Positions 7,941 to 64,000 of a stretch of DNA of 64,000 nt are shown piece by piece. The DNA is taken from assembly GCA_965112155.1 (NCBI GenBank), contig OZ218115.1; one strand, 5' to 3'. Each line of letters starts with the position of its first letter. Within the stretch, counting starts at the first letter, position 1. The notes beneath the pieces were generated by a model. The model did no database searches and had not been told where the DNA came from. It was given only the letters and a program-made list of their open reading frames with translations. This DNA is from Podarcis liolepis (taxonomy: Eukaryota). The position numbers were made by a program, and so were the translations under genes.

Positions 7941-8159
<219 letters not shown>

Positions 8160-8704
8160 TAACCAAAGAGTACTGGGCTGGGGGCCTGACCATTTTACTT
8201 TGCATTCCCCTCCACCATCCTGGTATCCTCCTGGTGTTTTGAACTCCCATTACTCCTGTCCACACTGGATGGGGTGGATGGAAGTTGTAGCCCAACAGCA
8301 TATGGAGGACACCAGGTTGGGAGGGGCTGCCTTCCACAGCCTTCCTGCCTCTCCTCCATCTGGTCCATGGAAGGATGAATCAGTTAGCATTCGCTTTGCT
8401 CATGTAAGGTCTCAGCTCAAATTCCCAGCATTTCTGACTGAAGGGCCTTCTAGCAGCTTGAGTCTTTGGAGTGCCCTGGCAGCAGAGCTTGTGGGACCCT
8501 TGGGGTGACTCCTCATCTCCTTGTGTCTCTCCAGTCTCCTTTGTGCTTGGCTGTGGGGGGTTGGAAGGGAGCCACCTCAGTCCTCTTTCATTCCCACCCC
8601 ACAAGCGTGGCCTTGCCAGTTCTTCTGAAAGAAGGTGTGCTCCTAGTGGTGATACTGATCATCTTTATCTATTCTCACCCCCCCCCCCCTAATCTGACTG
8701 ACAG

Positions 8705-8769
8705 GAAGCAGAATTGGATTGGACTGTAATAAAGAACAGCTTTGTCACAGAGGTGGAAAAACTTTCCCG
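8705..8769 (+). CDS. IRAK1: IRAK1 exon (alphaC helix)
   Basis: EAELDWTVIKNSFVTEVEKLS(R); acag|...|gtgag. Confidence 0.93.
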
Positions 8770-8789
8770 GTGAGACCTGAAAACTATGA

Positions 8790-9053
<264 letters not shown>

Positions 9054-9124
9054 TGAACTTCTATTCTTCTTCTCAATACTTTTATCCAGGGGTTCTTCAG
9101 AAGGTGGCACCAAAGACTGTTTGA

Positions 9125-9265
<141 letters not shown>

Positions 9266-10621
9266 TGAGAGAGGAGGAGAGCTACTCTCCCAGGCTGCGA
9301 ACAGATGAAAACGGGGCATGATGTTAAACCAAACTGGAGGATTGTTGCTTTGTGCATGAGAAGGAAGAGTTCTGCTTTTCACATCTTCTGCTTTGACTTG
9401 GGGAGGAGGGAATCATCACAAGACGTGTGTTGGCACACGTGCTGCGATTCCGCAAGGAAATTCATTGCAGAACTTTGCTTTCTAAAAACCCCATATTTTT
9501 TATTTATTTTTTGAAAAGTGTGAGCCAAGTCTGCTGAAATGGAAGCAGCCAGAAGGGTCTGTGTATGAGATTTCCCAATGGTGGGGTTTGGGTGCTCTGC
9601 TTCACCAGTTGTCCCTCTCTATGATTAACAAAGCCAGAATAAATTACTCAGAGTTAGAGAAATTAGGCAATTTACTAAAACTGCATAATTCAAGCAGGTT
9701 GCAGAATTTGGGTTGCCTGAGTGCAGAATTCCAGTTTTCTTGTTCTTAGCATATAAAAGTGTATTAAAAACTCTGGACACATCCTTTGCAAAGGATAGAT
9801 CTGTTATTGAATGGGAAAGGCACTAAGTAGAAATTCTTCCATATCGGTAGTGCTGTTGTGTGCTACTGTGATGGGCCTTTAATAATTAGCAGGGTGCAGA
9901 CAGTAGAAGCAGGTCAGGGTCATTTCGACGGGTAGAATAGCCAAGCTTCTGAAATCTGTAGCTTTTGTAATCCAAAACAATCTGCTCACCATCCACAAAT
10001 CTTCATGCTTTTCCCAACACACTGTGGTTTCCTGTCTTCAGCAAGCACAAGAGAACTCTGCTGTTTTTTGGAACATACCTGCCCCAGTAAAAAAACCCCA
10101 AAAGCTATATCTCTTAAAGTTCTTTTTTTTGGGTGTGTGTGTGGAAATGTTACAAATCTCCATTAAAAGCAGAGTTGGGGCTATGATTCCAGAAAAAGCA
10201 CAGAATGTGATACTGAGCCCAGAATTCAGCTTTCCAGAGATCTCATTTTTTGTTTTTCATAAAGCAAGCTTCTGTTCCTTTTAGGATTGTAAATATACAC
10301 TTAAAGGTGTGTTTGCAGTGCCTGGTGAAATCTCAGTAGCCAGAGGAGTTGCTGGATTAAAGTATAAGTGGTCAGAGAGCAGGACTTTGGTGCTTTGTCT
10401 TAGCCCTCATCTTCTGGATGATTAACTGGAGCAGAATGGGCAGTGCAAAATAGGCTGAACTGGGATTGATTTCTTTTTTTCTGGGCTCACAATGTGGATG
10501 ACTGGAACAAAATTCATAGCAACAAGATGAAGAACGTATGCTGCTCAAAATGTAATTGGTACACACAGGAGATTTTGATGAGGCTTATTTTGGAGAATGG
10601 AATGTGAGAGGCTGTGTATAG

Positions 10622-10963
<342 letters not shown>

Positions 10964-26630: not shown

Positions 26631-27470
26631 TCACTGAGACCAGAGCTGGCGCCTGCTCAGCTGGGTCAAAAAGAGGAAGGCAAAATGGAACTGCAGCACA
26701 TCGCAGATCTTCGACCAAAAGTGGCCAGTAAGCCGGCGGAAGGGTGCCCATTGTGCCAGCTCCTGGTCCCACAGCTTGAGGCTCACAAAGCCCAGGCAAG
26801 AGACCAATCCTAGCACCAGGATCCAAGCCGACCGGGCATTACCCAAATGCCTCTGCGCCTTCAGTGCTCTCCAAACAATTATAAATATATGTCCACTCAA
26901 TGCCAGCTCAAAGCCTTGGGGGTGAAGCAATGCCAGAACATAGCTCGCCAGTGAAGCTGCTTCCATGGCCAGGAAAGTGCCTGGTTGCCACCCGTGCTCC
27001 AGAAAGTGACACCAGACAACACCCCAAGCAAAAATTGGCAATGTCAACCACTGATCTAAGACAGCGGCCCAGTGATGCTGTGTCCAGAGTCGCACCCATT
27101 GTACAGGCCCATATGCCAGCGCCATAAGGGCAAAGACCTCCTGGAGGTAGCCTGCCTGCCCTCTCTCATCACCTGAAGGCAGCCAGTGCCAGCCCAGAAA
27201 GATGTAGGCCAAGTTGACTAAACAATTGGCAGGCATAGCCAGTACGGGAGGCAATCCTGACACAGTTGGTTCAGCATAGTACTTGTACCCAACTTCCGTG
27301 TGAACACCGTCAAAGACTCCTGAAGCCACAAGTCCCACACACAGCAGGAGACCTCCAGACACCAGCAAGAGTGGTTCTCTGCCTCCTGGTTTCCTCACAG
27401 TCCTTTCCGAAGTTCTGGAGGATTCTTCCTGAATGACGGCTGAACTACAGCAACTGTTCTGCTGTGACAT
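26631..27470 (-). CDS. TMEM187: Transmembrane protein 187 (single coding exon, 279 aa from the first in-frame ATG)
   Basis: GYKYYAE, AMPANCLVN, YGPVQWVRLWTQ, AVLDQWLTLPIFAW, LTGHFWSKICDVLQFHFAFLFLT match TMEM187. The ORF-track start at 27509 is GTG; the first ATG is 27470 (MSQQ). Syntenic between IRAK1 and HCFC1. Confidence 0.95.
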   Translation of the reverse strand: MSQQNSCCSSAVIQEESSRTSERTVRKPGGREPLLLVSGGLLLCVGLVASGVFDGVHTEVGYKYYAEPTVSGLPPVLAMPANCLVNLAYIFLGWHWLPSGDERGQAGYLQEVFALMALAYGPVQWVRLWTQHHWAAVLDQWLTLPIFAWGVVWCHFLEHGWQPGTFLAMEAASLASYVLALLHPQGFELALSGHIFIIVWRALKAQRHLGNARSAWILVLGLVSCLGFVSLKLWDQELAQWAPFRRLTGHFWSKICDVLQFHFAFLFLTQLSRRQLWSQ

Positions 27471-28157
27471 GTTGCTTGCTTTGGCAAAAGCCTCCCAAAT
27501 GCAAGTCACAGGTGGTGAGAGGCAGGCTTCCGAGCCTGGTGTTTTCCTATCCCAGTGTGGACTTTGATTCTCCTTCCCCTACTAACAGCACAAAAAAGGC
27601 GGAGTGAATGGGCATTCATGACCAAGAGGGACAGCTGTGCTCTTATCTGGCAAGTTTAATGTATTATTGGCCTTTTCTCTTCTTCACTCCACCCCTCCCC
27701 TTTCCCCCCAGAGCAGAGATTGGTGCCTGTGTAGAACTACTTACATGCATAGGCCCTGTCTGTTTCCTTGGCAGCCGCTCCAGTCACGCTGCTTCCAGTG
27801 AATGTGGTTATGAAACAGCTGCAGCGGCAGGATTGGCTGCTGGTGACATCACGGCACAGCGGGGGTGAGGTTGCTTCCTTCCCAAGGTCTTGTGTTTTGT
27901 AACCATGGGGACAGCAGCTGCCAGCCTCTCGGTGGTCCCTTGGGTTAGGCCTGCAAGACATCCTGTAGCTGGATCTTTACCGCAGAGGCATTGCTCCCAC
28001 CGCCTTTAAAAGAACCTCTACAGCACCCGTGTCAGTTCTTCAAAAACGACATAATGCAAAACAACCCACCACACAAGAAGTACCGAGTCTAAATATCATT
28101 CAGGAAGTGTTTGGTTATCAAGTTTCTTTGGATATGAGGGCAGTATTAATGAGGAAT

Positions 28158-42934: not shown

Positions 42935-43453
<519 letters not shown>

Positions 43454-60888: not shown

Positions 60889-62304
60889 AGGGCATCCCCT
60901 GCTGTCCCCTCTTCCTGCCTGCTCCACAGCCTCCACCTGAACCCCCAGCCAGTCAGCCGCCCCTTTGTGTGGAGGAAGATGGAACCGCTGAAAGCACATT
61001 TCATACACCACGGGGCTGGACTCTTGGGGCGGAGGACGCAGAGGCTCAAGTGAGGGAGCCCCAAGCAGGGGCCATCGCTGTGCCATGCCATGCTATGCCA
61101 TGCCATGCCCCAGCCTCGGGAGGGGGAAGAAGGACTGGAGTTCCTCCCCTGCCCCCTGCTGCTGCCCCATTTAACATGGACGCTGATGTTAGGGGTGGGT
61201 TTGGAGGGGGGAATTGTTATGGGGGGAGGGGGGCTGTTGGGTTTTTTACAAGTTGCAGTTACAGGAATGAAGTTCTTTTTGTATACCCCAGCATCCTGTG
61301 TCTTGGGGGTGGGAGGGTTATTCTCCCTGCCTCCATTTCTTGCCTCTGTACAGACCCTCTCCCTCAGTTTAGTTTTTAGTGTCTGCGTTGGTAATGGAGA
61401 GAGAGGAGTCTCTGCTGTTTGGGGAGGGAGGGAGGGGCGGGAGGTGGTTGGACCACCAATGCAGCTACTTTTGGGGGTGGGTGGGGGGATGCAGCTCATT
61501 CTACAACAGCTGTTCAGATGCTCAGCCCAGGGCGCTTGTGGCTTCAACCCACCCCCTCTTCTCCACACATGCAGCAATTCCTCTAACAGCACAAGCTGAT
61601 TTTTCCCTCTGCTCTTCCCTCTCCAGACCACAAGGCGGCATGTCTAGGCAAAAATGCATTGCCATTCCTCTCCATCATTTTATATAAAACCCTTTTTTAG
61701 GGGGGAGGGGAAGACATCTTGGAGGGATGGAGTCTGACCCCACAAGGTCAGGGTGATAAGCTAGGAACAAGACTGCGGGACAATACTTTTGCCTGTTGAA
61801 GTACAGCTTTCCCTCTGGCTGGGGCAGGGATCTAGGTTCCCTCCCACTCCAGAGGAATATGTACACCCCCTCCACTCGCTGCCTCTCTGGACATTCCACA
61901 GAGGGGAAGGGAGAAGAGCAGTCAGGGCTTATTCTTCAGAGATGGTGGGGAATAGGCTATAAAATGAAAAGCAAACAGCTGCACTGACTGCTATGTCCTA
62001 CCTCTCCGTTGTCAAAGAGATTTGGCAGGTAAAGCAGGCCCCCTCCAAAAAATAGCAAACAAACCCAGGAGCAGACCCCCTTCCCCACCAACTTGCTCTG
62101 TGCCCTGGTCTTTTGTATTATAATGTATTTCGCTGTGTCCCCTTCCTGTTCAGACCCTAAGATTCTTCCTACCCTACTCTCCTACCCCATTTATTTTCCT
62201 TTGAGACAGGAACAGTCCTCCTAGGAGTTCCCCATGGCTGTCCACCCCTCCGCTCCCCCTCACCCTAGTGCTGCGTATCTGTCGTTTTTGTGCTATTTTG
62301 AACA

Positions 62305-62483: not shown

Positions 62484-62489
62484 TTTATT
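62484..62489 (-). terminator. Putative polyadenylation signal of the RAB7-like gene
   Basis: TTTATT on plus = AATAAA on minus, about 240 nt past the Rab stop. Confidence 0.6.
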
Positions 62490-62728
62490 TCCATGTGCTT
62501 GGGAAGAGTAGCCTGGGATATGATCCAGCTCTCCCAAGTGCGCTAGGCTGTGTCATCCAGAGAACAAAGGTCTACCTTGGGATCCAGCTCCAGAAGCTGT
62601 GTGCTGCAGCCTTGCCAAATGTCCTTGGGGCTGTTCTGTGGGGTTGCACTTTCACCCTTCGGGATTGCAGAGCATGAAGAGCCCACCCCCTTAGGCAGAA
62701 GGAATCTTCCCATCTGTATTTGGTCAGA

Positions 62729-62818
62729 TCAGCAGCTACACTTCTCTCTGGCTGCCCCTTCTGGTGGCCTGGTCTCCAGGTGAACTGAGTCCGGTTGTGG
62801 CTCTTCAGGTACCCTCCG
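62729..62818 (-). CDS. RAB7-like GTPase, last exon (hypervariable tail plus CXC prenylation motif)
   Basis: ttccacctcag|CGG...: RRVPEEPQPDSVHLETRPPEGAAREKCSC*. Confidence 0.88.
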   Translation of the reverse strand, partial: RRVPEEPQPDSVHLETRPPEGAAREKCSC

Positions 62819-63030: not shown

Positions 63031-63156
63031 ATTCTTTAGTACAGCCCGTATGGCCCACTCAAACACCTCCTGCACGTTGGTGGCTTCCTTGGCGCTGGTT
63101 TCAAAGTATTTGGCTTCATGAAGCTTGCTCCACATTTCTGCTTCCTCAGAAGACAC
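63031..63156 (-). CDS. RAB7-like GTPase exon (G5 box)
   Basis: VSSEEAEMWSKLHEAKYFETSAKEATNVQEVFEWAIRAVLKN|gtaaga; compare RAB7A YFETSAKEAINVEQAF. Confidence 0.92.
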
Positions 63157-63701
63157 CTGGACAAAAACAGGGCTTGGGCATACTCTGCTCTCTTCCCAAT
63201 TCCATCTGCAGCTCTTAATCAAAAAGCTTGTGGTCTTTTTAGTGTACACAATGAGAGCAAATCTGTAAGATAATATAATTCTTCCCCAGATACCAAATTC
63301 TACATCTCTGCTCAACAATTATGCCAAAGTCCTCTGGTGAAGCTGTTCATTAGGATACAATATTCCCTGAACTTTCTGTCCACTCCCCGTCTCCTTGAGT
63401 CATTGCAAAGAGAACTTTTACAGCCCCCTAACAGAACCCCTAAAGAGTTCTGACCCCTAACTACTCCAACCCAATATGTCTGAGAGCCACACAGGATGTG
63501 GACTTGTGCCCTGCACCTGGCTTCATATGTAGCCCTGCCCAGTGGCAGACTTTGGGCTTTAAAATTTCAGCAGTGCACTGTGCAATGCCAAAATCTGGAG
63601 GGTGGGGGTGGCGCCTCTCGCCTTCCGCTGTTTGCTATTGTTGCAGGGCCCCCTTAGCTTGGCAGCCAGTGTGGGTGGGTGTGGGTGAACCTCTGCCCCA
63701 C

Positions 63702-63920
63702 CTCACGGTTCTCCAGGTCCATCTTGTTCCCAATGACAGCAGTGGGGAAAGTGGGCTCTTCCTCTGGCTCAATCTGCAACAGGAGCTGCTTGTGCCACTT
63801 CTCCAGGGCTTGGAAAGAGCTGACGGATGTGACATCGAAGACGAGAAGGCAGCAGTCTGACCCCCGGTAGAGGGCAGTCCCCAGTGCTTGGAACCTTTCT
63901 GTACCAGCTGTGTCCCAAAT
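63702..63920 (-). CDS. RAB7-like GTPase exon (G3/switch II to G4)
   Basis: IWDTAGTERFQALGTALYRGSDCCLLVFDVTSVSSFQALEKWHKQLLLQIEPEEEPTFPTAVIGNKMDLENRE; 73 codons, aligns without gaps to the RAB7A exon IWDTAGQERF...GNKIDLENRQ. Confidence 0.93.
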
Positions 63921-63988
63921 CTAGGTGCAAGAAGGGATAGAAGCTGAGACCTTGATTTCAAGACATCCCTGGGTCCTTGGTGACTTAC

Positions 63989-64000
63989 CTCCATTAATCT
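63989..64000 (-). CDS. Possible 3' end of the preceding RAB7-like exon (cut by the window edge)
   Basis: AGATTAATGGAG|gtaagt strong donor; phase 0 gives ...RLME, but this implies a short 68-nt intron. Confidence 0.45.

Follow-up and report, generated by a model that had tools for sequence, protein, structure and literature searches.

An ancient vertebrate Rab7 paralogue in the lizard Podarcis liolepis carries threonine in place of the switch II glutamine

Introduction

Several natural small GTPases, among them RAB24, RAB25 and Rap1, lack the glutamine of switch II. A 64,000-nucleotide stretch of the Podarcis liolepis assembly (contig OZ218115.1 of GCA_965112155.1; G000:C18:3100001-3164000 in our coordinates, hereafter the window) ends inside a gene for a Rab7-like protein in which the glutamine of the DTAGQ motif is also absent and a threonine stands in its place. 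From the letters alone, it had been predicted that this protein hydrolyzes GTP poorly, escapes the kinases TBK1 and LRRK1, and has an altered choice of effectors. The prediction was based on three residues, Thr67, Ala72 and Leu77 (residue numbers are those of RAB7A; the equivalents in the lizard protein are T65, A70 and L75). Is the missing glutamine an artefact, a peculiarity of one lizard, or a lasting property of a Rab7 lineage, and what would it mean for the GTPase cycle?

Results

The lizard gene is intact and spliced

From position 63920, the minus strand reads IWDTAGTERFQALGTALYRG, and a 219-nt exon (63920-63702) is flanked by AG and GT. Together with exons 1 and 2, which were taken from the neighbouring sequence, the gene comprises five coding exons of 47, 127, 219, 126 and 90 nt, every intron being GT-AG, and encodes 202 amino acids with CSC at the C-terminus (Table 1). 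The protein is identical to a database protein labelled Podarcis (lacertid; P0179) and contains a Ras-family domain (PF00071, E 3.8e-54). An ungapped alignment to Rab7a from the PDB placed T67, A72 and L77 (codons ACA, GCA and CTC) at Q67, S72 and F77, in agreement with the residues and numbering originally given. The nucleotide motifs, F33, Y37, T40, F45, W62, C83/C84 and the CxC motif are all kept; GTP binding and prenylation are therefore expected.

An AlphaFold model (mean pLDDT 77.9) adopts a Rab fold, with Rab7A structures as its best match. Since the model contains no nucleotide and both switches were modelled with low confidence (blocks of 10 residues at 51 and 61), it is uninformative on the geometry of T67. 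The ESM Atlas returned generic Rab clusters only. We also observed that the alpha3-beta5 loop of the lacertid protein is acidic, and that intron 3 holds a short high-copy repeat (63539-63598) where contig depth in DNA run X15 is in the thousands.

Table 1. Coordinates of the lizard Rab7 gene and its neighbours. Positions are those of the window unless a contig or locus is named.
Feature	Position	Strand	Remarks
Coding exon 1, 47 nt	G000:C18:3167986-3168032		ATG; His6 aligned with RAB7A Leu8; past window end
Coding exon 2, 127 nt	G000:C18:3165847-3165973		GKS P-loop; switch I with K38R; past window end
Intron 2, last 80 bases	63921..64000	-	AG acceptor at its end; gene runs on beyond window end
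Coding exon 3, 219 nt	63702..63920	-	G3/switch II with T67, A72, L77; G4 NKxD
Thr codon ACA (Thr65)	63900..63902	-	RAB7A switch II Gln67; clade-wide
Ala codon GCA (Ala70)	63885..63887	-	RAB7A phosphosite Ser72; non-gecko squamates only
Leu codon CTC (Leu75)	63870..63872	-	RAB7A Phe77; clade-wide
Coding exon 4, 126 nt	63031..63156	-	G5 ETSAK; RNA-read joints CT..AC
Coding exon 5, 90 nt incl. stop	62729..62818	-	Hypervariable tail; CSC end (CxC prenylation motif)
3' UTR of the Rab7 gene	62484..62728	-	AATAAA at 62489; same-strand RNA coverage stops near 62484
HCFC1, Kelch_HCF exon frame	42935..43453	+	PF13854, E 1.9e-33; gene ~37-62 kb; downstream neighbour
TMEM187	26634..27578	-	PF15100, E 2.3e-102
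IRAK-like kinase exons	7941-10963	+	Motifs only; consistent with IRAK1 by position beside TMEM187
RENBP exon frames	L022:5418-5888	+	Beyond exon 1, past window end

The contig of one DNA run spans 63547-64000 with 0 differences, and none of the differences listed for stranded RNA reads (~9-22x in these bins; all but 10 less-supported differences) changes the Thr codon, which bears out the earlier judgement that a miscall is unlikely here. The one RNA-read change at 63885 is silent. In stranded RNA run X23, 20 reads join exons 3 and 4 and 11 join exons 4 and 5, while 13 reads continue from exon 3 into the sequence of exon 2 (loose ends at 63922). These raw reads, which carry no tissue labels, come from a close relative, as judged by fixed differences, and cover the junctions of exons 2-5. 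Although the gene is labelled Rab-7a, Rab-7a-like or Rab-7b in databases, we rejected a miscall or other assembly error, a private allele and a pseudogene of RAB7A, to which practically no weight can be given beside an open five-exon gene, spliced RNA, a DNA contig that agrees, a normal RAB7A elsewhere in the genome and orthologues in animals as distant as sharks and mammals.

The gene order at the locus is IRAK-like kinase exons, TMEM187, HCFC1, the lizard Rab7 gene and RENBP. Stranded RNA places the end of the Rab7 gene (near 62484) tail to tail with that of an opposite-strand transcript, HCFC1 by position (near 62300), ~200 bases apart. Searched against PDB sequences, the HCFC1 exon matched other Kelch proteins only. 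A Pfam scan of the 218 upstream stop-to-stop frames of at least 62 aa gave RENBP, a weak zinc-finger hit in a transposase-like frame and two further weak hits below cut-off. Past RENBP, an open frame of 679 aa has a weak zinc-finger hit (L023:6937-8973, minus strand); we take this frame to resemble a hAT-type transposase or a domesticated derivative.

A separate clade with a fixed change at the switch II glutamine

The same genome has a RAB7A gene on contig C2 (exons of 53/127/219/129/96 nt) and a RAB7B gene on C6 (53/127/216/126/81 nt). Both keep Gln, Ser and Phe at sites 67, 72 and 77, as do its three RAB9 genes. In the G domain, the lizard protein shares 56% identity with RAB7A, 46% with RAB7B and 50% with RAB9A. 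Two intronless RAB9B-like genes with open frames and a normal switch II lie on different contigs (G000:C4:80104146, L005; G000:C21:17419090, L006). Orthology to RAB7A was rejected, given the RAB7A gene on C2, and so was a recent RAB7A duplicate; a tree in which the squamate copies were constrained to group with lizard RAB7A had a p-AU of 1.6e-11. Orthology to RAB7B was rejected because RAB7B is a separate gene on C6. The original prediction had treated the gene as a Rab7-like variant and missed that it is an ancient paralogue beside a normal RAB7A.

Three homologue searches, of which the best 120 hits each of 188, 898 and 7800 were used, yielded 230 distinct cluster representatives at 90% identity. 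The query of the first search was exon 3, whose words include T67 and so favour T-bearing hits; the other two queries were whole proteins. Sorted by identity without columns 67, 72 and 77, 159 representatives grouped with the lizard gene and 71 with other Rab7s. Site 67 was Thr in 155 of the 159 (Ala in two, Ser in one, one gap) and never Gln, whereas no representative of the other 71 had Thr (Gln in 70, Pro in one). Site 77 was Leu in 155 (Phe in one, three gaps), while site 72 was Ser in 144, Ala in 13 and Cys in one, with one gap. At site 8, His (62) and Thr (48) occurred, and Leu was outside the six commonest states.

Site 67 is better conserved than 77% of the clade's columns, the median column being 85% conserved. 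Just five columns reach 85% fixation and yet differ between the clade and other Rab7s (I13L, T22S, K38R, Q67T and F77L), and four of the five fall in the P-loop or the switches. Exon 4 is one codon shorter than in RAB7A, a deletion found in 159/159 representatives. Across the 35 clade members placed in a tree (below), motifs G1-G5 are conserved, and all 35 have the C-terminal double cysteine (C205, C207; the lizard tail reads CSC).

Ala72 was confined to non-gecko squamates (13/159); geckos have Ser, and Pogona has Ser inside the Ala group. Q67T and F77L are therefore old changes, whereas S72A was added late. The three residues on which the prediction was built thus fared differently: T67 and L77 hold across jawed vertebrates and A72 does not, Ser being kept in 144/159. 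Likewise, the predicted loss of the TBK1/LRRK1 phosphosite applies to most squamates but is not a family trait, as S72 is found in geckos, amphibians, fish and monotremes.

Among the matches listed, named members came from sharks, rays, bichir, sturgeon, gar, teleosts and lungfish, and, in tetrapods, from all three amphibian orders, squamates, echidna, platypus, armadillo, tamandua, elephants and manatee. Turtles, crocodilians, birds, marsupials and boreoeutherians were without a named member in these lists, which also hold unnamed entries. The clade evolves faster than RAB7A: the lizard and echidna proteins of the clade are 65% identical, compared with 99% for lizard and fish RAB7A.

Placental copies, among the matches listed, were from Xenarthra and Afrotheria only and sit on a long branch (P0241, P0242, P0247, P0309 and P0313). 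Site 67 is Ala in elephant, manatee and tamandua, site 72 is Cys in armadillo, and the near-invariant W102 is altered in two members of the tree, that of the elephant being one. Such changes at near-invariant sites fit a weaker constraint, and those in placental copies may mark a gene decaying towards loss. Squamate copies have a long stem branch and changes of their own (E105Q, F106L, A110I, C143S and Trp at 168). Two divergent Rab7-like proteins of Drosophila were left outside the tree: P0237, the second of whose Rab7-like domains keeps the Gln within an altered switch II, and P0275, with Pro at site 67.

An ancient lineage of jawed vertebrates with a probable origin in genome duplication

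In a maximum-likelihood tree of 54 chosen sequences and 173 columns, from which the trait columns 67, 72 and 77 had been removed, the 35 clade members were monophyletic (support 96/88), and their inner order was near the species tree. RAB7B, on a long branch, remained unplaced. On this tree, one change is needed at site 67 (Gln versus a small residue), one at site 77 and three at site 72. Intact and spliced, the lizard gene belongs to an ancient Rab7 paralogue of jawed vertebrates.

Genes of the L1CAM family and PMCA genes, the two families tested, each occur on contigs C18, C2, C6 and C11. Three of these contigs, C18, C2 and C6, carry the three Rab7 genes of the lizard genome, at distances of 0.3-0.8 Mb on C18, 1-2 Mb on C6 and 7-10 Mb on C2. 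Because both flanking families share these contigs, the paralogue likely arose in a vertebrate whole-genome duplication, beside RAB7A and RAB7B; the sequences compared included none from lamprey or amphioxus.

Relation to the Rab7c of 2009

Mackiewicz and Wyroba described a divergent 'Rab7c' clade of two sequences, one each of Danio and X. tropicalis, that stood outside both Rab7a and Rab7b; they reported His at position 8, tied the clade to 1R/2R and inferred its loss in amniotes (PMC2693434). The present clade shares with it His8, in both the lizard and X. tropicalis proteins (P0317, NP_989167.1), and is likewise one divergent clade (96/88) with fish and X. tropicalis members; cyprinids are included, and no Danio sequence was retrieved. 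Unlike the 2009 description, it is present in squamates, monotremes, xenarthrans, afrotherians and sharks. Matched by description and not by accession, the clade is likely the Rab7c of 2009, and we use that name below; the lineage has thus probably been named once before. If so, the 2009 inference of a loss in amniotes is mistaken, and in humans the stretch between RENBP and HCFC1 would be the site of a lost gene. The main text of PMC2693434 mentions neither glutamine nor hydrolysis; its Figure 6 alignment or.doc supplements may show the threonine.

A zebrafish study reported three rab7 genes with a mutual identity of 88% (10.1101/2023.03.09.531857), so the divergent clade was apparently left out. 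We found no other paper on vertebrate Rab7c or on Rab7 Q67T in the literature searched, which covered few subscription journals, so that the clade may figure in later surveys of the Rab family; PMC11839130, PMC4728774 and PMC10527268 held nothing on the clade. Relative to that literature, what is new is the missing glutamine, the survival in amniotes including placental mammals, and the position of the gene. The annotation can also be corrected, since databases call the gene Rab-7a or Rab-7b.

To our knowledge, humans have no Rab7c gene. A table of the OMIM genes of human Xq28 gives RENBP, HCFC1, TMEM187 and IRAK1 in that order with no Rab between them (PMC5356410), and the paralogue was likely lost in humans.

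Discussion

How would Rab7c switch off? Our preferred reading, which we regard as evenly balanced between right and wrong, is that Rab7c is a membrane-anchored endolysosomal Rab with poor unaided GTP hydrolysis that would be turned off mainly by a TBC GAP. Having probably originated by genome duplication beside RAB7A and RAB7B, the protein would be prenylated and targeted to late endosomes or lysosomes, and would be loaded by Mon1-Ccz1, as suggested by the retention of F33 and Y37 (K38 being Arg). Basal hydrolysis would be slow, with the off-switch gated by a TBC GAP that supplies the catalytic residues. The effector set would be changed, with weak RILP binding predicted from the loss of Leu8 and from F77L, and in most squamates S72A would also remove the TBK1/LRRK1 site.

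TBC GAPs are reported to supply Gln and Arg in trans, so that Gln mutants are still substrates, up to tenfold slower (PMC6176412). Ypt7 Q68L was described as having lower GTPase activity while retaining GAP stimulation (10.64898/2026.01.23.701266), which backs the caveat in the original prediction that hydrolysis may persist in the presence of a GAP. Both observations favour slow basal hydrolysis with a GAP-gated turn-off. Against this stands the finding that basal hydrolysis fell more than fivefold in Rab5 when the switch II Gln was lost, but less than ~1.5-fold in Rab1 and Rab35; in the latter two the loss also reduced GAP-stimulated hydrolysis as well as activation driven by DENN/DrrA, and the Q67A form of Rab35 was inactive (PMC3919270). 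Since Gln mutants thus differ from Rab to Rab, it does not follow that Rab7c is GTP-locked; its low intrinsic hydrolysis is plausible by analogy. It also counts against the preferred reading that the published mutants are Q-to-L, A or E and not Q-to-T, and that the clade evolves far faster than RAB7A, its placental copies being further altered. Two base changes would be required to regain Gln, which makes its absence weak evidence for selection.

Three other readings of the cycle deserve weighing. Rab7c could be a tissue-specialised duplicate of near-ordinary biochemistry, in which T67 was fixed early by drift to little effect. We consider this unlikely: Gln stands in 70/71 representatives of other Rab7s and also in RAB7B and RAB9 of the lizard, and T67 ranks with the clade's better conserved columns. 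It draws support from Rab1 and Rab35, whose basal hydrolysis barely depends on the Gln (PMC3919270), and from the absence of a member, among the matches listed, in several major lineages; the fast evolution of the clade, together with the extra placental changes, keeps the reading alive.

Alternatively, T67 with T22S, K38R and F77L might tune Rab7c to a dedicated GEF or GAP, net cycling being ordinary. Rap1, which pairs a non-Gln residue with a dedicated regulator, offers a parallel. The concentration of four of the five fixed differences in the P-loop or switches speaks for such tuning, as do the reported role of K38 in the Mon1-Ccz1 mechanism (PMC6176412) and the effect of the Gln on GEF action in some Rabs (PMC3919270). 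However, Ala and Ser are tolerated at site 67, a pattern closer to 'any small residue' than to one specific contact, and we think this tuning improbable too.

Lastly, Rab7c might be effectively always on and GAP-resistant, in the manner of Rab24, with its control lying in expression, turnover or localisation. Loss of the Gln greatly reduced the TBC-stimulated hydrolysis seen with Rab1 and Rab35 (PMC3919270), F77L lies on a surface described as GAP-binding (PMC5902227), and the intrinsic GTPase activity of RAB24 has been described as very low (PMC4756281). By contrast, the nearest tested relative, Ypt7 Q68L, was still GAP-sensitive (10.64898/2026.01.23.701266), and both C-terminal cysteines are kept in all 35 Rab7c proteins of the tree, whereas RAB24 is reported to be poorly prenylated (PMC4756281). 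An always-on Rab7c therefore seems to us unlikely.

Besides the GAP-gated off-switch of the preferred reading, the effector face is predicted to differ. Phe77, replaced by Leu in Rab7c, is presumably a residue of the hydrophobic triad. This triad has been reported to shape the partner choice of Rabs (PMC5902227), and RAB7A L8A lost binding to RILP while keeping VPS35 and FYCO1 (PMC12697282). The loss of Leu8 is thus a further pointer to an altered effector choice, with weak RILP binding predicted from these residues. As for phosphorylation, S72 was described as an LRRK1 site in a switch region that TBK1 also phosphorylates (PMC12599248), and RAB7A S72A weakened the recruitment of retromer with the binding of RILP, PLEKHM1 and FYCO1 unaffected (PMC11828465). 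Given S72A in most squamates, Rab7c there is predicted to be without that phospho-control.

A wider picture can be offered tentatively, as possible rather than probable. Rab7c would be a third vertebrate Rab7, present since before the split of sharks and bony fish, with a rewired off-switch and effector face, serving in fish, amphibians, squamates, monotremes and elephants an endolysosomal route that has a GAP and effectors of its own, a route separately lost in birds, turtles, marsupials and the human lineage. In any case, the clade provides a natural, long-conserved test of the role of the Rab switch II glutamine, for which engineered Q-to-L mutants are reported to mislead (PMC3919270), and its function is directly testable in zebrafish, medaka or Xenopus.

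Among known Rabs, the lizard protein is closest to RAB7A, its best match in the PDB by sequence and fold, with which it shares intron positions, G1-G5, F33/Y37/F45/W62, C83/C84 and CxC. It differs from RAB7A by Q67T, F77L, K38R, T22S, L8H, D16N and a one-residue deletion at 146, and by lying on another chromosome. It has its exon layout in common with RAB7B, likewise a divergent Rab7 paralogue of vertebrates, and UniRef often uses the RAB7B name for it; true RAB7B, however, has Asp8, Gln, Ser and Phe at the three sites, a CC tail and a separate locus on C6. With RAB24, a Rab of a different subfamily whose intrinsic GTPase activity is described as very low and whose prenylation is described as poor (PMC4756281), it shares a natural change at the switch II glutamine.
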